A DNA stretch of 64,000 nt from the NCBI GenBank assembly GCA_007375645.1, contig VMER01000001.1:209211-273210 (forward strand), written 5' to 3'. Under the pieces are notes generated by a model that saw only the letters and a list, made by a program, of their open reading frames with translations, did no database searches and was not told where the DNA came from. Source of the DNA: Parcubacteria group bacterium LiPW_15 (GTDB lineage Bacteria > Patescibacteriota > Minisyncoccia > UBA6257 > 2-01-FULL-56-20). The position numbers and the translations under genes are program-made. This document shows, piece by piece, positions 5,168 through 62,976 of this stretch; within the stretch, counting starts at the first letter, position 1; every line of letters begins with the position of its first letter.

Positions 5168-5584
5168 TCAGTTCACGGGGAGGGACTCGACCCAGCCGAG
5201 CTTCCACCCGGCTCGAAGGTCGACCGAGGACATTCCCCAAAGGATGGGGAATTCGTCCTTGGCCTGCCGGTCGAAGAACTTCTGGGCGAGTTCGTAAGAG
5301 CTCTCCACGCGAAGGTTCTTAAGGAAGAGTTCCCTGGGAATCTCTTCCCCGGCGTGAGCATCCATGAACTCGTCGGCATTCACATTGAGCATCACCAACT
5401 CTTGCTTGAGGTCAGCGATGACGCAGCGAAGCCGGATGAGAAGTTCGCTCGCCAGACCGACGGGATGGAAGATGCCTTCCTGATCTTCCGTCCGAGGATT
5501 GAGCTCGGCGGCACATTTGCTGATTTTGTCCGGCGAAACCGTGACGCAACGGAGCCAAAGCTCCTTGCCGAACGACAGTTCCAT
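5168..5584 (-). CDS. Hypothetical protein (high-GC cassette gene 2 of 3)
   Basis: Start chosen at MELSFG because AAGGAG RBS lies 8 nt upstream; ORF track shows a longer 5168..5626 form. Confidence 0.5.
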   Translation of the reverse strand: MELSFGKELWLRCVTVSPDKISKCAAELNPRTEDQEGIFHPVGLASELLIRLRCVIADLKQELVMLNVNADEFMDAHAGEEIPRELFLKNLRVESSYELAQKFFDRQAKDEFPILWGMSSVDLRAGWKLGWVESLPVN

Positions 5585-5726
5585 CTTCTCTTCTCCTTCT
5601 GCCCGCTTGGGGCAACTCTCTCTCAAAGAGCCGATTGCTATGTAACGACTATAAGTATACGGATTTATTTGATTTTGTCAACCATAATTTAAAAGGCCTC
5701 CGGTTTCCCGAAGGCCTGCGAAACGG

Positions 5727-6255: not shown

Positions 6256-6339
6256 GCACAGGTGGTAGAGCGGTCAAATACAAGAGACTGTAAATCTCTC
6301 GCCCATGTGGCTACGCAGGTTCGAATCCTGCCCTGTGCA
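6256..6339 (+). tRNA. tRNA-Tyr (anticodon GTA), long variable arm
   Basis: Manual fold: acceptor GCACAGG/CCTGTGC, 3-bp D-stem with GAGCGGTCAAA loop (nearly identical to E. coli tRNA-Tyr), anticodon stem AGAGA/TCTCT with loop CTGTAAA, long variable arm, T-arm GCAGG-TTCGAAT-CCTGC, discriminator A; CCA not encoded. Confidence 0.8.
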
Positions 6340-6462
6340 CAATATAAAGATTTTGCCCTTACGGTGGTGTCTCGTTGTGACATCGACAAACGTGTTCGAA
6401 TCTCCCGAGATTACTCGGGATTACGCATCTCTACGTCGCTACGCTTCAAGAGCTGCGAGAAC

Positions 6463-8280: not shown

Positions 8281-9375
8281 TTATTCAATCACCCCTCCGC
8301 CGAGCATTATGTCATTTTTCACACCCTCCTTCGCTGAAGCTTCGGAGGGCAAGTAAATGACCGCGGATTGGCCGGGGGCCACGAACTTCTGAGATTTTTT
8401 AAAATCCAATCTCCATCCTCCTTTTTCCTTGACCAAAACAGCCGGGAATAAAGGCTGGCGATAGCGAACACGGGCGGATACTTCAAGAGGATAGTGAATA
8501 GTAGATGGCGAATAGTTGAAATTTACGTCGGTAAGATAAACGGATTTTTCATAAAGAGCAGGATTATCGCTACCCTCCGCGACTACCAGAATATTTTTCT
8601 TCACATCTTTTTTGGCTACATAAAGAGGAACATGGTTTTTTTGGCCCTTCTCATGCTTTAAGTTTCCCACTCCGCCACGCTGGCCGATAGTATAAAAATG
8701 AGCACCAAAATGTTCCCCCACCTTTTCTCCCTTCAAGTTCAAAACCGCGCCTTTTTTCTCCGGAAGATAACTCTTCAGAAAATCTTTAATGGAGACCATG
8801 CCTAAAAAGCATATTCCTTGCGAGTCTTTTTTCTCCGCCGTGGATATTCCGGCTTTTTTGGCGATTTTTCTCACCTCCGGCTTCAGATAATCCCCTATCG
8901 GGAAAAGGGATTTCTCTATCTGCTTCGCGGTCAGAGTCCACAAAAAATAGCTTTGGTCCTTATTCTTGTCCGCGGCGATAGCCAAAGAATTATTTTTCTT
9001 TTTAACGTAATGTCCGGTAGCCACAAAATCGGCCCCGAGCCTCATCGCCCTATCGAAAAATATTCCGAATTTTATCTCCCGGTTGCACATCACATCCGGA
9101 TTCGGGGTAAGGCCTTTCTTATATCCGGCGACCATATAATCCACCACATGTCTTTTATATTCTTTTTCAAAATCCCAAGTGTAAAACGGGATGCTTAAAT
9201 GTTCCGCCACTCGGCGCGCGTCTTCCGCGTCTCGGTCTTGGCAGTTATCTATGTTATAGCCGCGAATAAAAACACCGACTACATCGTAGCCTTGTTTCTT
9301 AAGTAAATACGCGGCAACGGAGCTATCCACTCCCCCCGACATACCGACAAAAACTTTTTTCTTGGCCTTTTTCAT
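8281..9375 (-). CDS. mnmA: tRNA-specific 2-thiouridylase MnmA
   Basis: 364 aa; PP-loop SGGVDSS, catalytic Cys motifs, MnmA domain order. Confidence 0.93.
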   Translation of the reverse strand: MKKAKKKVFVGMSGGVDSSVAAYLLKKQGYDVVGVFIRGYNIDNCQDRDAEDARRVAEHLSIPFYTWDFEKEYKRHVVDYMVAGYKKGLTPNPDVMCNREIKFGIFFDRAMRLGADFVATGHYVKKKNNSLAIAADKNKDQSYFLWTLTAKQIEKSLFPIGDYLKPEVRKIAKKAGISTAEKKDSQGICFLGMVSIKDFLKSYLPEKKGAVLNLKGEKVGEHFGAHFYTIGQRGGVGNLKHEKGQKNHVPLYVAKKDVKKNILVVAEGSDNPALYEKSVYLTDVNFNYSPSTIHYPLEVSARVRYRQPLFPAVLVKEKGGWRLDFKKSQKFVAPGQSAVIYLPSEASAKEGVKNDIMLGGGVIE

Positions 9376-9456
9376 TGCCGCAGGATTATACGATAATTTT
9401 ACAAAATTGAAAAGAAAAGGAGCCCCCGAAGGGGCTCCGAAAAGAACCTGGAAACG

Positions 9457-10692
9457 TTACGTTGGCTTTACTGCGGATGCGTCCATGAGCGCTCCGGTCG
9501 CTCGTTCGATCCTGAGCGAGAGGAGCTGGCCGATGAGGCTGCCGGCCGCGCTGCCGACGATATAGGGAATCGCCTTCTCGGGAGTGATGGACCCGATGAC
9601 CAGCTGATGCATGGTGAGGAACCACACCCCATTCGAAAAGACCGAGGCCCAAGCAAGGTACTGCTGATTGTTCCGTTGACCGGCACGGCTCTTCAAGGTG
9701 AAGCTCAGCGCCTGCCAAGCCGAGAAGAACAGAAGCACCGCTCCGCCGGCGTATCCGATCCACGGATTCACTCCGAAGAACACGGTCTGCGGCACCAAGA
9801 GAACGCCGAGTAGAACGAGCTGGATCTTGGGCCAGGAGATGCTCCCCGTCTTTTCGCGCTCGGCTTCCTCGCTCTTCGTGAAGACGTGAATATCGAACCT
9901 GGCCTTGATGCGCTCCGCCATCTTTTGCGCCAGATTGGCGCCGATCAAAGAGCCGATGACGCTTCCGGTGGTCGTGGGCAGGAACATCGCCCAGTCCATC
10001 TTGAACTTGACGAGGATCGCGAGCTTTGCGAAGTCCGCGCCAAGATTCAAAACCACGGCGAAGAAATGGAACCAGTAGCTGTCGGCGCTTCGCGCAACCC
10101 GAAGGATCGCGAACGTGAAATTGCCGAAGATGGTGAGCGCCATGATGCTCACGAGAACCCAGGCATTGAGAGTCAGCGTGGTTTGCTCTTTCCCCGGCAG
10201 GAGAACCGTGTACCCGTTCAAGGAATAGATCTGTGAGGTAAGCAGCGCGAGGAGTACCGCAACCGTCGGCCAAAGCTTCAGAAGCTGAGGCCTTCCCTTC
10301 GCGCCTTCGGGGCTCAGACCCAACGCGGATTCAATCTTGATCGAAATGGTATTGCCGTGCAGGGTCCCCAGGATGGTCGCGAACACGTAGGGCGCGAGAA
10401 GCGCAGTGGGAAGATCGCTCTTTACGAGAAGGCGAAGCGACCAGAAGAAAGCGAAGTTAGCCGCAACCGCCGCCAAGAGATGGTAGGCGTTGCTGTTGCG
10501 ATTCGCGGACCTGCTCTGCAGGCTGTAGGTGGTGTTCTGCACGTATGCGAGAACCATCACCAAGGCGAGCGTTATGCCCGGGGCCGCGGAAAATGTCCCG
10601 CCCCAGAAAAAGAGCAGCTGGAGAACGATGATCGCTCCGATGATGCGCAAAGGATTCGTGTTCCAGAGTCGAAGCCAGAAGGATCGTTGCAT
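9457..10692 (-). CDS. Polytopic membrane protein with internally duplicated multi-TM domain (high GC)
   Basis: 411 aa; two homologous halves each ending ...GS(V/A)(I/A)GSLIG..L...R; about 10 TM helices; second gene of a minus-strand high-GC operon; a terminator hairpin lies at about 9405-9435, between its 3' end and mnmA. Confidence 0.6.
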   Translation of the reverse strand: MQRSFWLRLWNTNPLRIIGAIIVLQLLFFWGGTFSAAPGITLALVMVLAYVQNTTYSLQSRSANRNSNAYHLLAAVAANFAFFWSLRLLVKSDLPTALLAPYVFATILGTLHGNTISIKIESALGLSPEGAKGRPQLLKLWPTVAVLLALLTSQIYSLNGYTVLLPGKEQTTLTLNAWVLVSIMALTIFGNFTFAILRVARSADSYWFHFFAVVLNLGADFAKLAILVKFKMDWAMFLPTTTGSVIGSLIGANLAQKMAERIKARFDIHVFTKSEEAEREKTGSISWPKIQLVLLGVLLVPQTVFFGVNPWIGYAGGAVLLFFSAWQALSFTLKSRAGQRNNQQYLAWASVFSNGVWFLTMHQLVIGSITPEKAIPYIVGSAAGSLIGQLLSLRIERATGALMDASAVKPT

Positions 10693-10800
10693 GGTTTTCC
10701 CCTTTCAAGTTGCAACTTATTGCTGCGTTCATACTAAACTTTGAGTTTTTAAAAAACAAGAAAGGCCCCCGACGTGAGTCGGGAGCCAAGGTGCAGTGAA

Positions 10801-13596
10801 TCAGATGGGTTCGGGAAGGAACTTGTTCCAGTCGAAGTGTCTGGGCTTCGCGAACCAATCGCGGAGGTAGTCGTGCGGAAGCATCCGCATGAGGATCGGA
10901 CCGGCATCCGGCCCATCCGCAGGGAAGGACACGAAGCAGACTCCAGTGTTGTTCGGAGGGAATCCGCCAGTCGAGCCGTAGAGATCGGTGTGCACTCCGG
11001 CAGCGCAGATGGCATAAACTCCCTTCGAAGTCTCCACCAGGCAGTAGAAGTGCTTATCCCCTACGATGGTAACGACGAAGAACTTCATGAGCCCGTAAGT
11101 GTCGTCACCGCGGACATAGTCGCTCTTCACGAACGCAGCCAGGAGATCCGACCAGCTCGAAAGCTTGGGCGGAGAACCGAGGAAGCGAAGACCCCACTCG
11201 TACCTTCCGGGCGCCTTGATGGTGCCCAGGCCGAAGGTTTCGCTGCCGAATCGCGGGGCGCAAACGGCTTTCTCGAGGAAAGCCTCCTTGCCTCGCCAAA
11301 GCGGCGATGCCAGCAGTCTGGCCCGAAGATGCCTTGCGGGATACTCGCCTTCCAGATCCGCGCCATCCAACGTGTGGATGCGATGATTTCCGTTCGGGAA
11401 GTTCAGCACGCCCACATCGCGGGTGTCGGAGATCTTCTTGTTGATCTCGCTGACACCGCGGATGGTAAGACGAGACTTTTCGAAGCGCCGGAGAACCGCG
11501 CTGTAGAAATCCACGTTCGGGTCGATGTGCCGGTCGTAGACCTGCATCATCTGATGGAACGGAAAGTGATCGCCGCGAAGATGGTGCTGACTGATGCTGA
11601 TCCGGTTGACCTCTTCGGTCAGCCTGAGAACCGCACCCATGTCGCCTCGCTCCGCTGCGCGCTGGATGTCAGCGGTGATTCCCTGGAGCCAAGCCTCGAT
11701 ACGGATGAGCGGCATGACTTCAGGGTCCGGACGGTAAGTGGGATTGAACCACAGATTGCCGTCGGTCGCATCGTCCAACTCCGCCACCATGTGAACGGGC
11801 ATGTCGCTAGCGGTAAAGAGACCTCCACGACGCATGAGCTCGATTGCAGCCTCGTTGACACCGAGATGCATGCGCTGTTTGGGGTCCCAGATGAACCGTT
11901 TCGCCGAACCGCCGAAGTGGTTGTCGGTGTTGACGTAGACGTTGTAGTACTTCGTCTTGGGGTAAGGGAACGCGAAGTTCGTGCCAAGCACCGCTTCTAC
12001 CTTGCTCAAACTCTTGATGGGCAAGGAATCGACGCTCAGAATGCCGTTCGACAGACTGATGAAAAGCGCGCCCGGTTTGAACTGCGGATTGAAGATCGCC
12101 TTGGAGATGGGATGCATCTTCCTGGTCGAGTCGCGCAACGAATCCGTAAGGAAAACGTCGTCGACACAGATCGGCGCCACGTGAACGAACTTCGTCACCG
12201 GCATCCCATCCTTGGAATCCTCCCGACCGACAAGCCGGTGATTCAAGGCATAGGGATGACAGATGATCGTAAGGTCGGCCAGCGTGTCGTTGAAGACTTC
12301 GCTGCCGTACTTGTCGCCGAAATCGGCCAGGAGCTCGTCAGAGACCGCGTCCCTGCTCGGAACGTGAAGCTTGATGCTCTTGTCATGGAGCTTGAGATAG
12401 ACGTTGCCCTGGCTGATGACCTTGCAGTTCGGGATCGCTTTCTCGAACATGCCGACCACCATGGCTCGCAGACGCAGCCGCGTGAGTTCGACCAAACGAT
12501 CGGCAACGTTGGTGAGGATGATGCGCGCTCTCATCTCGGAGAGACGCTTGACCTCCAGCTCCCACTTGTTGGTGGCCGCAAGCCCGCGACGGTGCTTCAT
12601 GGCAGCCGCGAGCTGGCCCTTGGCCATGGAAAGCTCCGCCTCGACTCGTCCCTGCTTTTGGATGGTGAGGTAGCGGCACTCGCTTTGCGCCGCCTCCGCG
12701 ATGATTTCCTCCTCCCGATATCCGAACGCGACGTAGATCGGGCCGGGAAATTCCGGAGCTCCATCCGGTCGAGTGGCGATCTTCTGCCATCCATCCATGA
12801 CTTCGCCGAATTTCTCGGCAATGGTTTGGAAGATGAGCTCGCCAGGGGGCTGGTCGCGCAAGACGCGCTTGACCTCCTCACGATAGTACCTCGGGAACCG
12901 CGCGGGATTGATGCGGATTCCGGACACCGCCGCCCTGTAGACCTTGTTGGTCCAAACGGTCTTCTTGGTGTTCATGTCGATGGTGTTCGTGAGGATGACC
13001 GCATCGGCTCCACGGAGCCTGGCCCCGATCAGAGCCCGGCGAACCGGGTTGTCGGCGATGTTGCGATCGTACTTCAGTCCGATCAGCGCGCCGTTGATGA
13101 GCGCGATTCGCGCGTTGGCACCGCCGGGCAGAACAAAGGGCTCCTGAGGTGTGATCTTCGGAAATTCGAAGCCCTCGGCGCCGGCGGGAAGATCTTCCAT
13201 GCTCAGACGCCCAACGCCAGCGACGAACTTCGTCGTGATACTGGCGTTTGTCCGCCCGGTCAAAGACTTCACCTTGTCCTTCAGAAGCTTGGACGGGATG
13301 TAGGGGTAAAAGTCCTTGTGAAAACGCTCGATGGGAACGTTGTGCCGAACGGCTTTCCTCAGATCCTCGAGCACCTTGTGAGTCCAGAGGTGTTCGCGAA
13401 CCCTGCGGGCGAATTGGCGCATGTCCAGCCGATAGGAGTTGCCGGCAAGCTGCTCGGCAAACTCCTTACTGATGGCACCGTAGATCTCGGTCACGCCGTT
13501 CTTCTTCAGAAGGAAGCCTTCACGGATCAATTCATGAACTCTCGCAGAGAGTCCGGGAATCTTCCAGGCGTCTTTTCGTTTCGCTTTGGTAGCCAT
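10801..13596 (-). CDS. Large hypothetical protein (931 aa, high GC), possible phosphoesterase/nuclease-like motifs
   Basis: Protein-like composition on the minus strand versus low-complexity Arg/Asp antisense ORF on plus; GNH-like and GD-x-H motifs but no confident family; first gene of an operon with the 9457..10692 membrane protein. Confidence 0.6.
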   Translation of the reverse strand: MATKAKRKDAWKIPGLSARVHELIREGFLLKKNGVTEIYGAISKEFAEQLAGNSYRLDMRQFARRVREHLWTHKVLEDLRKAVRHNVPIERFHKDFYPYIPSKLLKDKVKSLTGRTNASITTKFVAGVGRLSMEDLPAGAEGFEFPKITPQEPFVLPGGANARIALINGALIGLKYDRNIADNPVRRALIGARLRGADAVILTNTIDMNTKKTVWTNKVYRAAVSGIRINPARFPRYYREEVKRVLRDQPPGELIFQTIAEKFGEVMDGWQKIATRPDGAPEFPGPIYVAFGYREEEIIAEAAQSECRYLTIQKQGRVEAELSMAKGQLAAAMKHRRGLAATNKWELEVKRLSEMRARIILTNVADRLVELTRLRLRAMVVGMFEKAIPNCKVISQGNVYLKLHDKSIKLHVPSRDAVSDELLADFGDKYGSEVFNDTLADLTIICHPYALNHRLVGREDSKDGMPVTKFVHVAPICVDDVFLTDSLRDSTRKMHPISKAIFNPQFKPGALFISLSNGILSVDSLPIKSLSKVEAVLGTNFAFPYPKTKYYNVYVNTDNHFGGSAKRFIWDPKQRMHLGVNEAAIELMRRGGLFTASDMPVHMVAELDDATDGNLWFNPTYRPDPEVMPLIRIEAWLQGITADIQRAAERGDMGAVLRLTEEVNRISISQHHLRGDHFPFHQMMQVYDRHIDPNVDFYSAVLRRFEKSRLTIRGVSEINKKISDTRDVGVLNFPNGNHRIHTLDGADLEGEYPARHLRARLLASPLWRGKEAFLEKAVCAPRFGSETFGLGTIKAPGRYEWGLRFLGSPPKLSSWSDLLAAFVKSDYVRGDDTYGLMKFFVVTIVGDKHFYCLVETSKGVYAICAAGVHTDLYGSTGGFPPNNTGVCFVSFPADGPDAGPILMRMLPHDYLRDWFAKPRHFDWNKFLPEPI

Positions 13597-13760
13597 TTGG
13601 CATACCTCCTTTTCGTTTCTTCTTTTCAGTTGTCAGGCTGCTGATTTCATTCTAGGCAAAACTGAGTCGACCGCAATAGCTCCGAAACAAATATGGATTA
13701 AAAACAAAAGCCCCGCGAATGTCGAGTGACTCTCGCGGGGCTTTTACAATTATTTTTTAT

Positions 13761-14330
13761 TTAACTTTTGTCTACGCGCTCTACGTACTCGCCGGTCTCG
13801 GTATTAATTTTTACAACATCTCCTTCGTTGATAAAAAGCGGAGCATTAATAGTCGCGCCACCCTCCAAAGTAATAACTTTATTTCCGCCCTGCGCGGTAT
13901 TCCCTTTTATAGACGGCGGAGCCTCTACAACCTTAAAGTCCATCTTGATCGGCATAGCCACTTTGATGACCTTGTCTTTAAATATAGTGGCGACAACCGG
14001 GGTGTTCGGCTTCAAGAACTTGGCCGAGTCCCCTATCACCTCTCCGGAAAGCGAAAATCTATCCGCGGCATTCTTCTCATCGCAGAACCAATACTCTCCG
14101 CGGTTAGCGTAAAGAAATTTGGAATTCTTTCTTTCTATCTCCGCTTCTTCAAAACTATCCGAACCTTGCCAATTGCGTTCCAAAATTTTTCCGGTTATCA
14201 AATTTCTTATCTTGGTGTTCACGGTCGCCTTCCGTTGCTGCATACGCAAAAAATTCATCTCCAAAACTTCGTAGGGAGCGCCCTCCAAAATAAATAAGGT
14301 TCCTTTGGTTAATTCGTTATATGAAAGCAT
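13761..14330 (-). CDS. efp: Elongation factor P
   Basis: 189 aa; EF-P KOW/OB domain architecture. Confidence 0.93.
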   Translation of the reverse strand: MLSYNELTKGTLFILEGAPYEVLEMNFLRMQQRKATVNTKIRNLITGKILERNWQGSDSFEEAEIERKNSKFLYANRGEYWFCDEKNAADRFSLSGEVIGDSAKFLKPNTPVVATIFKDKVIKVAMPIKMDFKVVEAPPSIKGNTAQGGNKVITLEGGATINAPLFINEGDVVKINTETGEYVERVDKS

Positions 14331-18742: not shown

Positions 18743-19333
18743 TTACGAAATGAGGTCGGCGAGTACCTTGCCCCAGTCCTTGCGCCTGTCCCCGCACAGA
18801 GGAGCCTGTACGAACACCGCCTTAGCGCCGTTAATCGTGAAGCTGGAAATCTCTCCGTTCGCAAAGTAGCTCGGGTTCAAGCACTCGATGGCCGCGATCA
18901 TGGCGTCTTCGTGGTGGTTTCCGTCCGTGACCATGGCCACGAACTTTGCCCCAAGGCTGGCCGCCTTGAGCGCAATCACGAAGCCGTAGGGAACCTCCTC
19001 TCCCGGTCTGTACACTCCCGGTCCGATCGTTTTCATGCTCACCGGCATCATCATGTCGGTGAGGACGACCTCAAACTCGAAAGGAATGACGGACTTGGTC
19101 TCGGATTCCCTTAACGCTTGCCAGTAGGCGCTCCACTCCCTGTCGGAATAATCCGGCTTCTCGGCGAAGCCAGCATCAATGAGGAGGCGCTGGACGTTGT
19201 CGGCATCGACTTTCTTTCTCATGATGTCCATAGCCTCATCGAACGACGAGATGATAGTGAGATCGTGGCCCTTGAGGGTCGCTCTAGCAGACTCGTGGTT
19301 GAATCGACTGTTGTCGATCACGAGAATCTTCAT
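18743..19333 (-). CDS. Receiver (REC)-like domain protein with C-terminal extension (high-GC cassette)
   Basis: Start at MKILVIDNS with AGGAG RBS 5 nt upstream; VVLTDMMMP resembles the REC phospho-acceptor region; own promoter TTGACC-17-TATACT at about 19455-19485 on the minus strand. Confidence 0.5.
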   Translation of the reverse strand: MKILVIDNSRFNHESARATLKGHDLTIISSFDEAMDIMRKKVDADNVQRLLIDAGFAEKPDYSDREWSAYWQALRESETKSVIPFEFEVVLTDMMMPVSMKTIGPGVYRPGEEVPYGFVIALKAASLGAKFVAMVTDGNHHEDAMIAAIECLNPSYFANGEISSFTINGAKAVFVQAPLCGDRRKDWGKVLADLIS

Positions 19334-19533
19334 CGCTTCTCCTGCCTTTCTTTTGAATGTGCGGTAAGCCTGTTTCAGCTTTGTGCGGAAAGTATAATAT
19401 ATTTTCACATTTTGGTCAAGTCATATAGTTTCGCTAAAAAGAAATGCCCCGACCATTTGGTCGGGGCATACAAAGAACTACAAGGAGGTTTCGCGGAACT
19501 TCTCCCAAAGCGGCAACTCACCGCGCATGAACA

Positions 19534-30224: not shown

Positions 30225-32927
30225 ATGGAACTCCGCGCAGGAACGACGCTGGTCACAGCGTCCGATCTCGTGAGCATTCCGAACCAGTCTCCTCAATTCA
30301 GAGACTGGGCTTGGTATCAGCTAAACTTCGCCCCCGAGCACCTGGACGACATCGTTTCGGCCCTTCTTCAAAAGGATAAGGGCACGAATGTCCGGGAAGC
30401 CCTGGAATATCTGAATGACTTCCTCGGCGGACACCCCGCTACCGGCGAACGCCTGAACGCAAGCGACATCACCGGAGAGAATACCCAGAGCGCGTTGTTC
30501 AAAAAACTGCGCGTTCTGCTCGGCAAGGATTCCGGCGCGACTAACCCGGATGTTTATCGTTTTCTGGGACAAGTCGGCCATAAATTCATGCCGCTATTCC
30601 TCGGAAGTCAGCGGTTCCCAAGAACCGAATACAAGTTTGGCGGGCCGCTGGCCCAACGATCCCTGTTTCAGAAGCTGGTAGACGAGGAAGACGGACAAAA
30701 AATCCTCTTCCCGTTCCTTGCCGACCAACAGTTTGCCAAATCGGAAATCAAAGATCCGAACCGATCGCAACTGCGGCAGAGCTATGCTCTCTGGAAAAGG
30801 ATCGCGGAGAACGTCAAAGACCACAGCCTGACAGAACTGTACTCCAAACACGGACCAAAGCTCGACCGGCTGACCAGGATGTTGAAGCGAGAGTTTGCTC
30901 CCTATTCCTCGGAACTCGAGGCGCAAAGGGATGCAAAGTCCGAACTCGTGACTCTGAGCCTGATGAGCTGGGTGAGCGCCGTCGAACTCAAAGAACGGCA
31001 GCCCCGCATTTTCTTCACGGAGATACCGGTCCTCGACCGGCATCATCGGCTCGGAGCTTGGAGGATCGATGCCGCAGAAGTACGAACCATTGAAGGCAAA
31101 GCGCCGACGCCCAAACAAAGGGCTAAGCTCAGGGAACTCAGCCTCACTCGGTTCACTTCTGTTGGCCATCTGCTCCAATCGCTTATCTCCTTCTTTGGAG
31201 AAGAGCTGGAGCTCGGCATCTGGGACTGGAAGTTCGCGATTGGCGACGGCGCCCCAAAGCGCGTCATCGATCCGAGAACCATGGTTCAGGATGTTCTCGC
31301 GGAACACACGCGCCAGATACAGCGATATCTGATGCTCGGGAGCCTGGACTGCCACTTAACCGGGCGGCCCCGCGCGAAAACTCTCTGGCATGACGACTAT
31401 TTCTTGCGCGGAACTCTGGCATATTTCTTCCCGACGCATCGGCCGATACTCGAGCAAATAGTCATGACTCCGGAATTGCACAAACAGATCTTCGAAGAAG
31501 AAGTGTTGATGCGATTCGGGAGTGCGAAACAGCGCGCGAAGCTAAGAGAACTGACGAGCCAAGTAGTCGGCAACGTCTTCGCTCTCTGGAACGGAAACGG
31601 AAAGCCGAAGAACGGTTCCGCGCATAAGCCAACCCCGCAAGTATCGCTTTTTGAAGAGCCCTCCGACAAACCGCGTTCTGCTCTTCATTACGTTGAGCAG
31701 ATGCAAAAACCGATTTTCCTCGAAGGCTCGCACGGGCTTCTGGAGGTCGTGGGGCTCGGTGAGGGCGGACGCAAGCGTTACGAACTCCGCCTGGACACGA
31801 TGCTCAAACGGATCGAGGAAGGCGTGATCTCCGGACGAAATATCGGGCAGGGCTGGCTCATTTCCTGTCCGCATCCGGATCACGACGACTCTACGCCGTC
31901 TTGCGCGGTCTATCTCACCGGACACTTTCACTGCTTTGGATGCAAGAACTCCGGCAAGATCGCGGCTGGTTCAATTCCAAAAAATATTGAGCTTGTCCCC
32001 GATCTGCGGCAACAGCACGAGCGAATGCGCCAAGGCACAACGAATGCTCTGGTTCCGGAAAGACATCGCGAGGTCATGCGCACCGTTCAGGCCCATCTCT
32101 CCGCCAAGTTCAGAAACAGTCCGGCCGAACGATATCTTGCGCATGAGCGCCGTCTGGATCCGGAACTTGCCGCGTCTTTTGGCGCCGGATACGGCAGCAA
32201 CGAACTCATTTTGGATCTGCTCCAAGACGGCGTAAGCTACGAGGAGCTTATCCATTACGGTCTGGTGGGAATCTCACCAAAAATGAAACCCTCCAGCCTC
32301 TTGATTCGATCATTACTCCAGAAAGGCTATTCTTTAGAGAGCCTCGGCAGGGAGCTAAAAGTACCGGGCGGCAAAAACGTCTCGGGCCTCCCCTATCCTT
32401 CGCTCTCGAACCGGATAACCTTCCCACTCATGACCGAAAGCTGGGTAACCAGCGTGTACGGAAGGGCCATCTATGCTTGCGACAAGCAATTCTCGCATCG
32501 CAAGCTCACCATTAAGTACACGGGCGTTCCCCACGGCGCTTTCAATGTGGCCGCGCTTAACGCGCCCGGTAATGATCTCATCGTTACCGAAGGCGTGATG
32601 GACGCGCTCTCCCTGATCGAAGCCGGAGTGCCGAACACGCTCGCGCTCATCGGGGTTCAGAACACCGTAATCCTCGAAGCCCTGGAACGGTCGCGCAAGA
32701 AGCTTTGGATCGCGCTCGACATCGACGAAAATAAGTCGGGACAGAACGCGACCGCAAAGATAATCGAACGATTCAGGTCGCGCGGCGTGCCCGTGGGCGA
32801 CTTTACCGCCAAGTTCGCCGCAAGACTCACCGAACAGTACAAGGACTACAACGCCTGGTGGCAGGCATCCGGCCGTCATCTTTCTCTTAACGACCGGGCA
32901 GCTCTTCTCGCTCTTTCCGAAGCGTGA
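30225..32927 (+). CDS. DnaG-like primase-family protein: CHC2 zinc finger plus TOPRIM fused to an unknown 500-aa N-terminal domain (high-GC cassette)
   Basis: CPHPDHDDSTPSCAVYLTGHFHCFGCKNSG is a DnaG-type zinc ribbon; VTEGVMDALSL...ALDIDENKSG is TOPRIM; AAGGAGG RBS; hairpin terminator at about 32930-32960. Confidence 0.72.
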   Translation: MELRAGTTLVTASDLVSIPNQSPQFRDWAWYQLNFAPEHLDDIVSALLQKDKGTNVREALEYLNDFLGGHPATGERLNASDITGENTQSALFKKLRVLLGKDSGATNPDVYRFLGQVGHKFMPLFLGSQRFPRTEYKFGGPLAQRSLFQKLVDEEDGQKILFPFLADQQFAKSEIKDPNRSQLRQSYALWKRIAENVKDHSLTELYSKHGPKLDRLTRMLKREFAPYSSELEAQRDAKSELVTLSLMSWVSAVELKERQPRIFFTEIPVLDRHHRLGAWRIDAAEVRTIEGKAPTPKQRAKLRELSLTRFTSVGHLLQSLISFFGEELELGIWDWKFAIGDGAPKRVIDPRTMVQDVLAEHTRQIQRYLMLGSLDCHLTGRPRAKTLWHDDYFLRGTLAYFFPTHRPILEQIVMTPELHKQIFEEEVLMRFGSAKQRAKLRELTSQVVGNVFALWNGNGKPKNGSAHKPTPQVSLFEEPSDKPRSALHYVEQMQKPIFLEGSHGLLEVVGLGEGGRKRYELRLDTMLKRIEEGVISGRNIGQGWLISCPHPDHDDSTPSCAVYLTGHFHCFGCKNSGKIAAGSIPKNIELVPDLRQQHERMRQGTTNALVPERHREVMRTVQAHLSAKFRNSPAERYLAHERRLDPELAASFGAGYGSNELILDLLQDGVSYEELIHYGLVGISPKMKPSSLLIRSLLQKGYSLESLGRELKVPGGKNVSGLPYPSLSNRITFPLMTESWVTSVYGRAIYACDKQFSHRKLTIKYTGVPHGAFNVAALNAPGNDLIVTEGVMDALSLIEAGVPNTLALIGVQNTVILEALERSRKKLWIALDIDENKSGQNATAKIIERFRSRGVPVGDFTAKFAARLTEQYKDYNAWWQASGRHLSLNDRAALLALSEA

Positions 32928-35820: not shown

Positions 35821-35992
35821 CTGTGTGCTAGAAAAAAGGGCGGATTTAGGTCAACCCTTATTGCACCTCGAAAAGAAAGCGAAAGGAGAGATGGAATGGT
35901 GAGTTGAGAATCTAACTTCAACCGCCGCTCTAAGTCCCTATCCGATCGTCTCAAACCCCGATCTGAAACGAATTCTACAAAAGGAGAAAAAA

Positions 35993-37642
35993 GTGAACAT
36001 CATCAAGAAGTTCACGGTTCTCGTGGCTCTCGCACTCCTCGTCTGCACCGGGACGGCCTACGCGGCCGATCCGCCGCGTCATCCCGTTCCCGTCGGTGAA
36101 CCCGAAGACGCCACAACCGTCATCGGGCACCAAGGGCGCACGGAGCTGCCCTTTCCGAACCCCGCCAACAACACCCTGTACAAGGCGCTGATCGGTGGGC
36201 CGTGTTGGCTCATCGACACCAGACTGGACTCGAAGTTCGACCCGCCGTACGGAAACAAGTCGGGTCAGCTCGGCGACTTCGTTTCCGGCGAGTCGAGGGC
36301 GTACCGCTTCGGCGGTCACCTGCTCGATCTGCCGCTCACGAACCCGTGCAACGACCTGATTCCGAGTTCCGGCGTCGTCGCCCTCAACCTGGAAGTCCAC
36401 ATCTACACGAACGGCCTCGTACCAGGCGGAGTGTTCTTCGAGAACACCCGCTTCGTCCCCGAACTGTGGTCGGCAACGGCGCAGGTCGGGCAGACAGCCT
36501 TCCTGATCTACGAGAAGGACAAGCTCAGCGACTTCATGCCCGGCTTGGTCCAGATCGGCCCCGCTTCGATATACGAACTCGGCGGCCAGTCCTTCCGGCT
36601 GAAGAACGTCGGGAACAGCATCGACGTCGCCGTGAAGATCAATGGCTACTTCACCGAGGACAAGACCGTCGGCAAGGGTGGTCCGGCCGGCAAGGACGGC
36701 GTGTCCTGTTCCGTCGTGCAGACCAACGACCTGTCCTATAAGATGACCTGCGGTGACAAGATCGTCGCCGAATGGTGGTCCGGCAAGGACGGCAAGCCCG
36801 GCCTCAGCGGCCCGCAGGGAGAACCCGGACCCGTTGGCCCGCAGGGGAAACCCGGACTGAACGGTGGCCCGGGACCTCAGGGCCCCATCGGACCCACGGG
36901 ACAGACCGGAGCTACCGGACCGCAGGGACCCATCGGCCCCACGGGAGCGACCGGACAGACCGGACCCATCGGACCGATCGGACCCACCGGTGCCACGGGA
37001 GCAGTCGGACCCATCGGACCGCAGGGACCCATCGGACCCACAGGGCAAACCGGAGCTACCGGACCCATCGGACCGATCGGACCCACCGGTGCCACGGGAG
37101 CAGTCGGACCCATCGGCCCCATCGGACCCACGGGAGCAACCGGACAGACTGGCCCCGCTGGCCCGACTGGCGCTACCGGACCCATCGGCCCCATCGGTGC
37201 CACCGGCCTGACCGGACCGCAGGGCCCTCAGGGAAATCCAGGACCACAGGGGCAGAAGGGTGACACCGGCAATACCGGTCCAGCGGGACCCATCGGCCTC
37301 ACTGGCCCGGGTGGCCCCGCTGGCCCAATCGGACCCATCGGCCCCGCGGGTCCGCAGGGACCCCCAGGCGTCTGCGCCTGCCCGATCTCGTCCGGCACCA
37401 TCGTCTTGAACTGCCCCAGCGCGCCGGAACCGGAAATCAACGGCCGCGAACCGAACTGCGTAACCTGCGCGAAGACGGTGAGCAACGCCGACATCAAGTC
37501 CTGGAGCAACGTCATCTGCTCCTACTCCGGCGGCCCTCTCGCGAGTGACGCGATTCCCTGTCGCGTATACAACGTCCAGAACGGCTCCTTCAAGGTGGAA
37601 GGAATGGCCGGACAGACCATCACCTGGATGGCCAAGAACTGA
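35993..37642 (+). CDS. Secreted collagen-like protein: signal peptide, about 240-aa globular domain, about 190 aa of G-X-Y triplets, Cys-rich C-terminal domain
   Basis: GTG start after AAGGAG; signal [16 protein letters not shown]; about 60 contiguous Gly-X-Y triplets ([16 protein letters not shown]...); 8 Cys in the C-terminal 90 aa; high GC. Confidence 0.8.
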
Positions 37643-37672
37643 TCTCCTTTCGTCGACAGTCATCGCTCTTTC

Positions 37673-37700
37673 GCGGGCCCTTCGGGGCCCGCCTTTTTTT
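37673..37700 (+). terminator. Intrinsic terminator GCGGGCCCTTCGGGGCCCGC plus T7
   Basis: Seen directly. Confidence 0.6.
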
Positions 37701-37793
37701 GACAAAATTATTTAAAACAGGCATCATTTTGCGAGCGAACGCAACTTGATTCCTGAACGGGCAATATCGCCCACAAACAGAAGGAGAGAAAAA

Positions 37794-38573
37794 GTGAACA
37801 TCATCCGGAGACTCGCGATCCTCATCGCTCTCGCACTCCTCGTCATCGCCGGAACCGGCTACGCAGAGGATCCGACCGCCAGCCCGAGCACGTACTTCAA
37901 CCTCCTGCCCCGGCAGAATCCGTTCGAAGTGCCGGCCCAGAACACGAAACTCAGCCTCGAGCTTCCGTTCGGAGATCGGCGCGAGGTCGTGTACGTTCCG
38001 ATGAAGGCGTGCGTCCTGACCGGTCCCAGTTCCAACTGGTTCGTCGACAAGGAAACCAGGGTCTACTTCGCGGGCAACTGCGGAGGAGTTCCCGAAACCG
38101 CCGAGCATCTGTTCATCCGGGTCACTGCCATCGGCGTGAACATCCAGGACTACGGCTGGGACTTTCCGGGTGCCGGTTTCTACACGACGACACCGAACAG
38201 CGCGTCCACCGAGACAGGCACCCTCTACGGCGGCTGGGTCCAGGCAATCGTTTTCGTGCAGAGAGCCGGACAAGTCGAAACCGGAGCAGCCATCGTGGAG
38301 CTCAAGCTGTTTCAGGCTTCGGGTTTCGCCATGCGCAAAGGATTCGAGCTCGAGCTCAAGTACGGCGAAGCCTACGCGATCGTGGAAGTCGTGGGCTACA
38401 CGTTGCCCAAGACAGCGAAATCGACCGGCCTCTCATGGAAAGGCGTCAGGCTCCCCCACGTGAAGTACACGGTGAACGACCTCGTGACGGACGAGAAGGG
38501 CCTCAGGGTCTGCGTCGGCGCGAACGAAAACGGCTGCACCATCTGGGAAACGATGGTGCCGATGAAATACTAG
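37794..38573 (+). CDS. Secreted hypothetical protein, paralogous leader to the collagen-like gene (no collagen region)
   Basis: GTG start after GAAGGAGAG; N-terminus VNIIRRLAILIALALLVIAGTGYAEDP versus [27 protein letters not shown] in the upstream gene. Confidence 0.62.
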   Translation: MNIIRRLAILIALALLVIAGTGYAEDPTASPSTYFNLLPRQNPFEVPAQNTKLSLELPFGDRREVVYVPMKACVLTGPSSNWFVDKETRVYFAGNCGGVPETAEHLFIRVTAIGVNIQDYGWDFPGAGFYTTTPNSASTETGTLYGGWVQAIVFVQRAGQVETGAAIVELKLFQASGFAMRKGFELELKYGEAYAIVEVVGYTLPKTAKSTGLSWKGVRLPHVKYTVNDLVTDEKGLRVCVGANENGCTIWETMVPMKY

Positions 38574-61779: not shown

Positions 61780-62343
61780 ATGAACACGCTGAAGATGAGC
61801 AGGGAGGCAAAGAGCTTCGTGGCCATCCTCCTCGGAGTGCTCGGCATCGGATTGACCATCCTCTGGATGGTCGAGACGAACCAGAAGATGGTCATCGAAG
61901 CTCGACAGAGCTCCGCCGTCCAGGATCTCGATCCCGGCAACTTCGTTCACGACGAGCACGAGCTCGTCATCCGCTACGGCAGCCTGAACGGCGTGCCCGT
62001 GGAGATGGTTCGGGACTACACGCACGGAGGACTCGTCCTTCGCGCTGTCCTCCCGGACAAGGATGACCCGCTCGCCAGCCCCGCCCTCGACGCTCTGAAA
62101 GCGGAAGTCATCCGCCTCTGCTCCTCGAAGGAGCCTGTTCCCCTCGGGGACACGGGGTACACCTTCCTGTTCACCGGGGTATGTGACCCCGAGTGGGCAC
62201 CCTACACCACGATCGAGTCGGCGAGAAACACGAGGAACATCCGCTTCATCCGATGGGTCGAACCGATCATCGGAAACGCCATCCGGGGTGGAGGCTCATG
62301 CGATACGAGCTACCGCCCCGCCGGCTACTCCGTGAAAAGGTAA
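61780..62343 (+). CDS. Hypothetical membrane-anchored protein (187 aa, high GC)
   Basis: GGAAGGAG RBS; N-terminal TM then soluble domain with 3 Cys. Confidence 0.55.
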   Translation: MNTLKMSREAKSFVAILLGVLGIGLTILWMVETNQKMVIEARQSSAVQDLDPGNFVHDEHELVIRYGSLNGVPVEMVRDYTHGGLVLRAVLPDKDDPLASPALDALKAEVIRLCSSKEPVPLGDTGYTFLFTGVCDPEWAPYTTIESARNTRNIRFIRWVEPIIGNAIRGGGSCDTSYRPAGYSVKR

Positions 62344-62463: not shown

Positions 62464-62511
62464 CGCGCCAGATGTTTGAGACACGATAACTCGACAAAAG
62501 GAGGAAGGCTC

Positions 62512-62976
62512 ATGTCCTTCAAAATGCATGTTGTCAACGTCATCACGACTCTGGTCGAGACCGCGCTTCCGCGGTTCTCGGGCGAAAAGAAGCTTCTTTA
62601 CGTTCTTATCGAAGCCGGAGTGACAAAAGAGAAGGTTGCGGTGCCCAGCCACCGCCGGTTCATCCACCTCCTCTTCCACCGGCCCGGCAACCACACGGCC
62701 GTCATGGTGGCCGTGACCGACAACCCCCACTTTCGCAAAGAAGAAATGAAAGACTGGCGGGTGGTTTCCTGCCACGATTCCTGCTGGAGGTCGGATGGCG
62801 TGGAAAGTCCGCTCTCCAAGCTATACTTCGAGATGTGCAAGGAGGTCGATTCGGCGGCTGCGCCCAGAGACCTTTGGGCGACTGCCCAGTTCTCGATCTT
62901 CGATAGCCCAAAGGTGGTGGAAGTGAAGAAGTTCACCCACGACCGCGAAAACTTCATCGCCCACATCGAGTGGTAA
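62512..62976 (+). CDS. Hypothetical protein (155 aa, high GC)
   Basis: AAAGGAGGAAGG RBS upstream of ATG (MSFKMHVV); the ORF track shows a longer 62476 form. Confidence 0.55.
   Translation: MSFKMHVVNVITTLVETALPRFSGEKKLLYVLIEAGVTKEKVAVPSHRRFIHLLFHRPGNHTAVMVAVTDNPHFRKEEMKDWRVVSCHDSCWRSDGVESPLSKLYFEMCKEVDSAAAPRDLWATAQFSIFDSPKVVEVKKFTHDRENFIAHIEW

Follow-up and report, generated by a model that had tools for sequence, protein, structure and literature searches.

ComEC combines a DNA-uptake channel with a fused metallo-beta-lactamase nuclease, while Rst_Hydrolase-3Tm systems and cyclic oligonucleotide-based antiphage signalling systems (CBASS) with transmembrane (TM) effectors have a layout of an enzyme and a membrane protein. 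The calcineurin-like metallophosphoesterase (MPE) superfamily (Metallophos, PF00149) includes nuclease-type members such as Mre11/SbcD, PolD DP1 and phage DNA repair exonucleases, and in TSUP proteins a 4-TM unit is present in duplicate. Candidate Phyla Radiation (CPR)/Patescibacteria have small genomes, in which a considerable part of the genes lacks an assigned function. Here, we describe two neighbouring genes of this kind from Parcubacteria group bacterium LiPW_15, which encode a 931-aa protein and a 411-aa membrane protein. They lie in a 64,000-nucleotide stretch of contig VMER01000001.1 (forward-strand positions 209,211 to 273,210), which is called the window below.

That the 931-aa product is a cytoplasmic, multi-domain and probably active MPE with a functional link to a triple-repeat membrane protein of 12 TM helices is well supported. 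To the further reading, in which the two form a predicted membrane-associated phosphodiesterase or nuclease system handling nucleic acid or nucleotides, we give a probability of roughly 40%. The catalytic fold is a known one; the family, its architecture, the triple-repeat partner, which has no solved analogue, and the conserved pairing are undescribed as far as our searches show. No paper combining the terms 'Candidate Phyla Radiation' and 'metallophosphoesterase' was found, and 'Hydrolase-3Tm' returned one incidental mention.

An unclassified metallophosphoesterase family

In a preliminary description of this DNA the 931-aa protein was taken for an orphan, a view that did not survive database searches. 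The protein has 34 full-length homologues at 27-72% identity, and a profile search of 1.84 billion representatives returned 198 relatives, counted as representatives at 50% clustering. Most full-length relatives are ~800-1270 aa long; shorter entries look like fragments. Among genomes of GTDB species, 46 loci were found, nearly all in metagenome-assembled genomes of CPR/Patescibacteria and one in a bin labelled as archaeal. The hosts include Yanofsky-, Giovannoni-, Zambryski-, Lloyd-, Sungii-, Taga- and Azambacteria. No Pfam, NCBIfam, PADLOC or PHROG model matched the 931-aa protein, and nine distant members of the family had no Pfam or NCBIfam match. Searches of PDB sequences with the single sequence and with whole-family, C-domain and N-half profiles gave chance matches only.

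The catalytic domain was recognised from its predicted structure and motifs. An AlphaFold2 model built with the family alignment (pLDDT 86.5, pTM 0.86) places a predicted beta-strand before each of four conserved motifs in the C-terminal domain (Table 1), and their order, together with this placement after strands, identifies them as motifs I-IV of calcineurin-like MPEs. The GNH and D-x-H motifs, noted earlier as scattered hints of a phosphoesterase or nuclease fold, are real and nearly invariant across an alignment of 134 family members, on which all residue percentages given here are based. In motif II, D609 occupies the position of the metal-bridging Asp, the leading G of the canonical G-D-x-x-D is replaced, and D608, D609 and G613 are invariant in family alignment A1. 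The residue that follows motif III is R in the window protein, in contrast to the D/E of the canonical G-N-H-[D/E]. A helical insertion of ~80 residues (630-707) lies between motifs II and III.

Three-dimensional similarity points the same way, with Foldseek placing the modelled domain in the MPE fold. Against the viral structure library BFVD there were ten matches at E <= 1e-3 (best 4.2e-7, to phage proteins), nine of them to MPEs or proteins of the same fold; the tenth was a long, poor alignment to a Hint-domain protein. Matches in PDB were weak (E 3e-3 to 0.1) and mostly of MPE fold, and included PolD DP1, Mre11, the Pol delta/zeta B subunit, Rv0805, purple acid phosphatase, Vps29 and GpdQ. 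An hhalign comparison of the C-domain profile with three phage MPE sequences was negative. We conclude that the large protein represents a new, unclassified family within the MPE fold, with a novel architecture, and that it is probably catalytically active.

The N-terminal domain of the window protein (residues 1-113) has an isoelectric point (pI) of 10.2 and a net charge of +12; its basic character is a family trait, with a median pI of 9.7 and values above 8.5 in 93% of 120 members. Longer homologues carry 100-300 extra N-terminal residues, also basic and helical. The domain probably binds a polyanion, most plausibly nucleic acid. In the alpha/beta middle domain, only P, G and Y residues are conserved at >=90%, so the domain looks non-catalytic, and it is probably a scaffold. 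No sequence homology between the N-half and the C-terminal half was detected with hhalign, which at the sequence level gives no support to a degenerate second MPE domain in the N-half. On inspection, the sequences have no convincing TM helix and their basic, helical N-termini are not signal-like; the 931-aa protein is probably cytoplasmic and soluble.

A triplicated membrane protein related to phage mini-proteins

The 411-aa protein is a triplication of a 4-TM unit, with 12 TM helices. Its AlphaFold2 model (pLDDT 88.1, pTM 0.87) has 12 long helices grouped 4+4+4, and hhalign comparisons among the three repeats showed all of them to be homologous over ~120 columns (probability 96-99%, E 4e-9 to 4e-18). 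The preliminary description had proposed ten TM helices in two duplicated 5-TM halves; the internal repeat holds, and the number and size of its units had to be revised. In each repeat, a loop of the form Q-N...S-R-x-x-x-R-N and a helix end of the form G-S-x-x-G...I-E are conserved, and 49 homologues were found. By the positive-inside rule, as read from the sequence, the S-R-x-x-x-R-N loops and the Glu that closes each fourth helix would be cytoplasmic. The 3 x 4 layout suggests a pseudo-threefold bundle. Foldseek found no structure in PDB similar to the membrane model (best E 0.11, no TM-score above ~0.3).

Two candidate families were considered for this protein and rejected. Membership of TauE/TSUP was set aside because the score lies below threshold and the architecture is 4+4+4, not 4+4. 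A relationship with DUF5698/UPF0316 was not supported: one of 55 family members matched, at E 0.009, and no phage mini-protein did. Other weak matches within the membrane family were to TraS and glycine zippers.

The repeated module is matched by the phage family phrog_33664 (E 6.1e-8, two matched stretches), and ten IMG/VR contigs encode proteins of 89-100 aa that consist of one such module and have three TM helices. Such mini-proteins (~89 aa) occur in at least 600 protein clusters, in contexts that are clearly those of phages (rIIB/gp32, NinB/NinG, terminases). The full-length 411-aa form was not found in viral contigs. Intermediate forms of 280 aa (P0233), 220 aa (P0234) and 180 aa (locus L005, 10946-11488) were also seen. 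These one- and two-module forms, judged as such by length and score, suggest a stepwise fusion from mini-protein to 12-TM protein. The 180-aa single-module protein of L005 had no match in GenBank phages.

On one phage contig (L057, 1273-4032), a string of genes encodes an AAA_25 ATPase, endonuclease VII, a 263-aa degenerate MPE, a 93-aa mini-module and an NT5C 5'-deoxynucleotidase. The degenerate MPE belongs to phrog_7339 ('DNA repair exonuclease') and has the motifs CWH / GDGGE / GNHG / HHG / AHSH. Its stop codon abuts or overlaps the start of the mini-module gene in L057 and in two related phage contigs (L058 and L062), the other genes having been checked in L057 only. A general association of MPEs with mini-modules in phages was considered and rejected, as the evidence comes from three related contigs.

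Conservation of the gene pair

Co-occurrence of the two genes in other genomes, which the preliminary description had proposed as a check, was examined in 50 non-redundant loci, of which 47 were informative and three were not. The membrane gene adjoins the large gene in 38 of the 47. It lies downstream on the same strand (13 loci), downstream and convergent (12), upstream and divergent (8) or upstream on the same strand (5), and the pair is usually 40-300 bp apart. A reverse search starting from the membrane protein led to the same association: on all three long contigs recovered, a Pfam-less protein of 922-948 aa was adjacent or one small gene away, and two of these three were confirmed as members of the large-protein family. 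In locus L005, a large-protein homologue at 35% identity is followed by the 180-aa single-module membrane protein. The subtype of the membrane protein tracks gene orientation and not the subtype of the large protein.

The two genes are therefore supported as a linked pair, although linkage does not mean co-transcription: a terminator-like hairpin also lies between the two genes of the window. Its stem of 10 bp with 8 GC pairs (-19.7 kcal/mol) is stronger than those of the two flanking hairpins. This makes the two-gene operon of the preliminary description doubtful; the data show genes that stay neighbours and have separate terminators, and do not demonstrate an operon.

Layout of the locus and its surroundings

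Positions of the features are collected in Table 1. Several points of the preliminary description stand here: both genes are on the minus strand, 108 bp apart, between mnmA and efp; hairpins with T-runs are present after the membrane gene and after efp; and the region is rich in GC (0.55-0.575 vs ~0.49 for the window). The GC content at third codon positions (GC3) is 0.76 and 0.77 in the two genes, compared with 0.49-0.60 in their neighbours. Across loci, GC3 of the large gene exceeds that of neighbouring genes in 32 of 39 cases, by 0.064 on average (~0.2 in the window), and that of the membrane gene does so in 24 of 29. Horizontal exchange, expression-linked codon bias or another cause is possible.

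Table 1. Features of the gene pair and its flanks. Positions are those of the window; residue numbers are those of the 931-aa protein unless stated otherwise.
Feature	Position	Strand	Remarks
mnmA	8281-9375		Flanking gene; the pair sits between mnmA and efp
Terminator-like hairpin	9419..9438	-	GGAGCCCC-TTCG-GGGGCTCC + T-run; 3' of membrane gene
411-aa membrane protein gene	9457..10692	-	Hypothetical protein LiPW15_249 (identical protein)
Repeat R3, residues 273-411 of 411-aa protein	9460-9876	-	
Repeat R2, residues 131-272 of 411-aa protein	9877-10302	-	
Repeat R1, residues 1-130 of 411-aa protein	10303-10692	-	
Terminator-like hairpin	10764-10787	-	GGCTCCCGAC-TCAC-GTCGGGGGCC, then T-run TTTCTTGTTTTTT; between the genes of the pair
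956-aa antisense ORF	10774..13644	+	Spans the whole 931-aa gene; not a gene
931-aa protein gene	10801..13596	-	NCBI hypothetical protein LiPW15_250, Parcubacteria group bacterium LiPW_15 (identical protein)
Calcineurin-like MPE domain, residues 545-931	10804..11964	-	From Foldseek and motifs
Family-specific motif G-F-P-P-N-N-T-G, residues 878-885	10942..10965	-	Near the canonical motif V/VI histidine site
MPE motif IV, G846-D-K-H849	11050..11061	-	G846 97%, H849 98%; after strand 841-845
MPE motif III, G736-N737-H738	11383..11391	-	G736 99%, N737 95%, H738 100%
MPE motif II, D608-D609-A-T-D-G613	11758..11775	-	D609 100%; after strand 603-607
MPE motif I, D558-N-H560-F-G562	11911..11925	-	D558 93%, H560 99%, G562 96%; after strand 550-557
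Alpha/beta middle domain, residues 161-535	11992..13116	-	Predicted structure
Three-helix coiled-coil insertion, residues 293-387	12436-12720		Predicted, inside the alpha/beta middle domain
N-terminal domain, residues 1-113	13258..13596	-	Basic, all-helical (predicted structure)
Terminator-like hairpin	13699..13741	-	GCCCCGCGA...TCGCGGGGC + TTTTGTTTTT; inverted repeat 3' of efp, upstream of the 931-aa gene
efp	13761-14330		Flanking gene
~180-aa family			IYFAHP...ENPNQPHH...LPFLDG..G.GVAGE; loci L009, L011, L012, L014, L027, L029, L033, L036, L040, L041, L044

Other open reading frames (ORFs) of the window also have GC3 above 0.7 (5168-5626, 18743-19408, 37746-38573, 61780-62343 and 62476-62976), all without a Pfam match. 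It seems that this genome has a set of genes of unknown function with high GC3, of which the pair is part; some of these Pfam-less ORFs may be spurious. GC content in the window peaks (0.64-0.65) at 35975-37705 on the minus strand, where a 576-aa ORF has no Pfam match and neither an Rfam family nor a tRNA was found. At 30225-32927 on the plus strand, a 900-aa protein has a DnaG-type zinc ribbon and a Toprim domain toward the C-terminus; this length is unusual for a primase, and residues 1-530 have no assigned domain. The sole RNA gene detected in the window is tRNA-Tyr (GTA), at 6256-6340 on the plus strand.

Across genomes, the pair belongs to a recurring block made up of L31, rpsB, tsf, a small TPR protein, the pair itself, a small MerR/HTH_17 protein, a large TPR protein, YceG and L10/L12, in which YceG and the TPR genes lie at variable distance from the pair. 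The MerR/HTH_17 protein (~75-90 aa) was seen near the pair in 12 homologous loci (e.g. L003, 10898-11116, and L050, 1491-1742). It usually lies within ~1.8 kb downstream of the large gene on the opposite strand, and could be a local regulator or plainly part of the syntenic block. A mobile-element origin of the pair was considered and rejected, as the large protein was not found in GenBank phages, PLSDB plasmids or IMG/VR and no repeats bracketing the pair were found.

Other neighbours recur near the large gene. A Pfam-less family of ~180 aa occurs beside it or just beyond the membrane gene in 11 loci, and is present in seven of the ten loci without a detected membrane gene; there is no copy in the window. 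Three copies have lipobox-like, lipoprotein-like signal sequences. IMPDH is another such neighbour, at 75-231 bp upstream in five loci and within 2.7 kb in eight.

Proposed function and alternatives

The proposal that the pair handles nucleic acid or nucleotides is based on the basic N-terminal domain, the nuclease-type structural neighbours of the catalytic domain, the neighbouring genes of nucleotide metabolism and a report on the nucleotide requirement of CPR bacteria. The latter is a preprint in which these bacteria are described, for the group as a whole, as incapable of nucleotide synthesis (bioRxiv 10.64898/2026.07.13.738296). The nucleotide theme itself draws on weak hints, namely the ~180-aa family, IMPDH and the phage MPE/NT5C string.

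By analogy with canonical MPEs, D558, H560, D609, N737 and H849 would hold two metals, H738 would be the catalytic histidine and the C-terminal two-metal domain would cleave phosphoester bonds. The alpha/beta scaffold with its coiled-coil insertion would take no part in catalysis. The two genes would be transcribed separately and functionally coupled, with the enzyme working at the inner face of the membrane together with the 12-TM protein, which may serve as conduit or anchor. Nucleic acid or material derived from nucleotides would be the substrate, and the reaction may feed nucleotide salvage or handle incoming DNA. A more specific version, which we regard as rather unlikely, casts the 12-TM protein as a triplicated form of the phage-spread 3-TM mini-protein, with a fold that has no solved counterpart, and as the membrane gate or sensor of a giant unclassified MPE nuclease. 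The two would then form a new type of CPR-specific machine for DNA or nucleotide scavenging across the membrane or for phage defence, and the phage mini-proteins would be its free-standing or counteracting form.

A number of observations weigh against the proposal. As regards the enzyme, conservation does not extend to the canonical motif V/VI histidines (H869 is found in 51 of 134 members, and G-H-x-H is absent), no profile links the C-domain to any Pfam or NCBIfam MPE family or PDB chain, and Foldseek does not distinguish the nearest MPE subfamily. As regards the coupling, nine loci with enough flanking sequence have no membrane gene. Of the 38 adjacent pairs, 20 have their genes on opposite strands and 18 are co-directional; the spacer could be read in 17 of the latter, and in 14 of these it contains a hairpin with a T-run. 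The correlation between the pairwise identities of the two proteins is weak (Pearson 0.32, Spearman 0.14), and partners can be discordant: relative to the window pair, the large protein of L020 is 37% and its membrane protein 76% identical. The reverse holds in L007/L049, where the large protein is 70% and the membrane protein 33% identical; either the partner was exchanged or deep subtypes assort independently, with adjacency kept. As regards the substrate, the best PDB match of the ~180-aa family, nucleoside 2-deoxyribosyltransferase 7m5h, covers most of its length at a non-significant E of 0.26, and the phage arrangement of MPE and mini-module is absent from four other phage contigs and limited to the three related ones. 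Finally, the physical interaction, the substrate and the biological role are inferred.

Among the alternatives, an anti-phage defence or abortive-infection module survives best, in which the membrane protein would be sensor or effector and the large MPE a nuclease effector against invading DNA. The layout of a large enzyme and a multi-TM protein fits this, and the abundance of the membrane module in phages would fit a phage-host conflict. Partner swapping between lineages, the patchy presence of the membrane partner and the raised GC3, strong in the window and hinting at horizontal exchange, could be read likewise. However, the surroundings speak against it. PADLOC-DB 2.0 gave no match at E <= 1 for either protein and none in the ten flanking window proteins, no defence genes were found around the pair, and the locus sits inside a block of housekeeping genes conserved across many lineages. 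No integrase or repeat flanks the pair, and the large protein is absent from the phage, plasmid and viral-contig collections searched. The abortive-infection or toxin-delivery role raised in the preliminary description is not supported, and we consider a defence function unlikely.

Less probable still is a phosphoesterase that does not act on nucleic acid and works with a TSUP/TauE-like anion permease. Here, the compound hydrolysed would be a small phosphorylated metabolite, a cyclic nucleotide or a precursor of the cell envelope; the membrane protein would import it or export an anionic product. Sub-threshold matches to TauE (PF01925) occur in the window protein (E 1.1e-5; 25.7 bits vs a gathering threshold of 32.6) and in 12 of 55 members of the membrane family, some members carry the JGI label 'YfcA', and the 4-TM repeat resembles the duplicated 4-TM unit of TSUP. 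Rv0805, GpdQ and purple acid phosphatase are among the fold matches of the enzyme, and cell-envelope genes (YceG and large TPR membrane proteins) are frequent neighbours. Nevertheless, the TauE match stays below threshold and is confined to the glycine-rich last helix, the repeats number three and not two, and the variable distance of YceG and the TPR genes is consistent with plain synteny. The strongly basic N-terminal domain and its repeats point instead to a polyanionic polymer.

Adjacency by inherited synteny alone, with unrelated functions, has a small chance of being right. The separate terminators, the 20 opposite-strand pairs, the weak mirror-tree correlation and the synteny of the whole block would all be expected under it. 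Yet adjacency survives four arrangements of order and orientation as well as the replacement of partner subtypes, it holds from both search directions, and a single-module version takes the same position beside a distant large-protein homologue. Moreover, the other genes of the block lie at widely varying distances, unlike the closely spaced pair.

The last alternative, that the 931-aa ORF is an antisense artefact of the slightly longer plus-strand ORF that overlaps it completely, was rejected and has a negligible chance of being correct, given the ~200 homologue clusters, the invariant catalytic motifs and the confident fold of the minus-strand protein and an antisense frame that is closed in every homologue. 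The two frames share their triplet phase, and the plus-strand ORF is free of stops because the 931 codons of the real gene include no TTA, CTA or TCA, which GC3-rich codon use has removed; homologous genes contain 1-38 such stop-generating codons each, and conservation of the antisense frame is thus absent. The real gene is that of the minus strand, as the preliminary description had argued; the 411-aa gene is likewise real.

In summary, a pair of hypothetical proteins has become a testable proposal: an MPE of unusual architecture with an active site, linked to a 12-TM protein without a Pfam family or a similar solved structure. The membrane protein is tied to a very large family of ~89-aa phage mini-proteins, and the function of either would annotate both. 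If true, the nucleotide-handling idea bears on how bacteria described as unable to make nucleotides obtain them. To our knowledge, the defence repertoire of CPR bacteria is little studied, and the defence idea, if true, would add a new system to this group.

Comparison with known systems

The large protein shares motifs I-IV, in canonical order, with the MPE superfamily and its nuclease-type members. In contrast to canonical MPEs, the family has GFPPNNTG in place of the motif V/VI histidines, and the window protein has ~540 additional N-terminal residues besides the ~80-residue helical insertion. It differs from Mre11/SbcD in having no Pfam Mre11 or SbcD domain match and no capping-domain match, and no Rad50/SbcC-type ABC ATPase or SMC-like neighbour appears in any locus table or neighbour cluster.

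For the membrane protein, the closest relatives are the mini-proteins of phrog_33664, which align with the three core helices of every repeat (identity between R3 and one mini-protein is 37%) and share the pattern QN..F..SRSRNR..YH..SNG.WF...PY..G...GS..G...S..IE. The window protein differs in fusing three modules, each with an extra N-terminal helix, and in being encoded on a CPR chromosome beside a large enzyme, whereas the phage forms stand alone at varied genome positions. TSUP/TauE-SafE proteins (PF01925, COG0730 YfcA) resemble it in their repeated 4-TM unit and glycine-rich helices. However, they have two repeats (8 TM) and not three (12 TM), the match is limited to the last helix of the repeats, and the S-R-x-x-x-R-N loop is specific to the family described here.

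As a pair, the genes resemble two-gene defence systems of enzyme and TM protein, such as Rst_Hydrolase-3Tm and CBASS with TM effectors, in layout alone; a PADLOC match and a defence-island context are both missing. The comparison with ComEC is one of functional analogy only, in that a membrane conduit would be joined with a metal-dependent nuclease in organisms that depend on scavenged nucleic acid. The folds are unrelated, and the CPR system would divide between two separate proteins, with a cytoplasmic enzyme, what ComEC unites in one.

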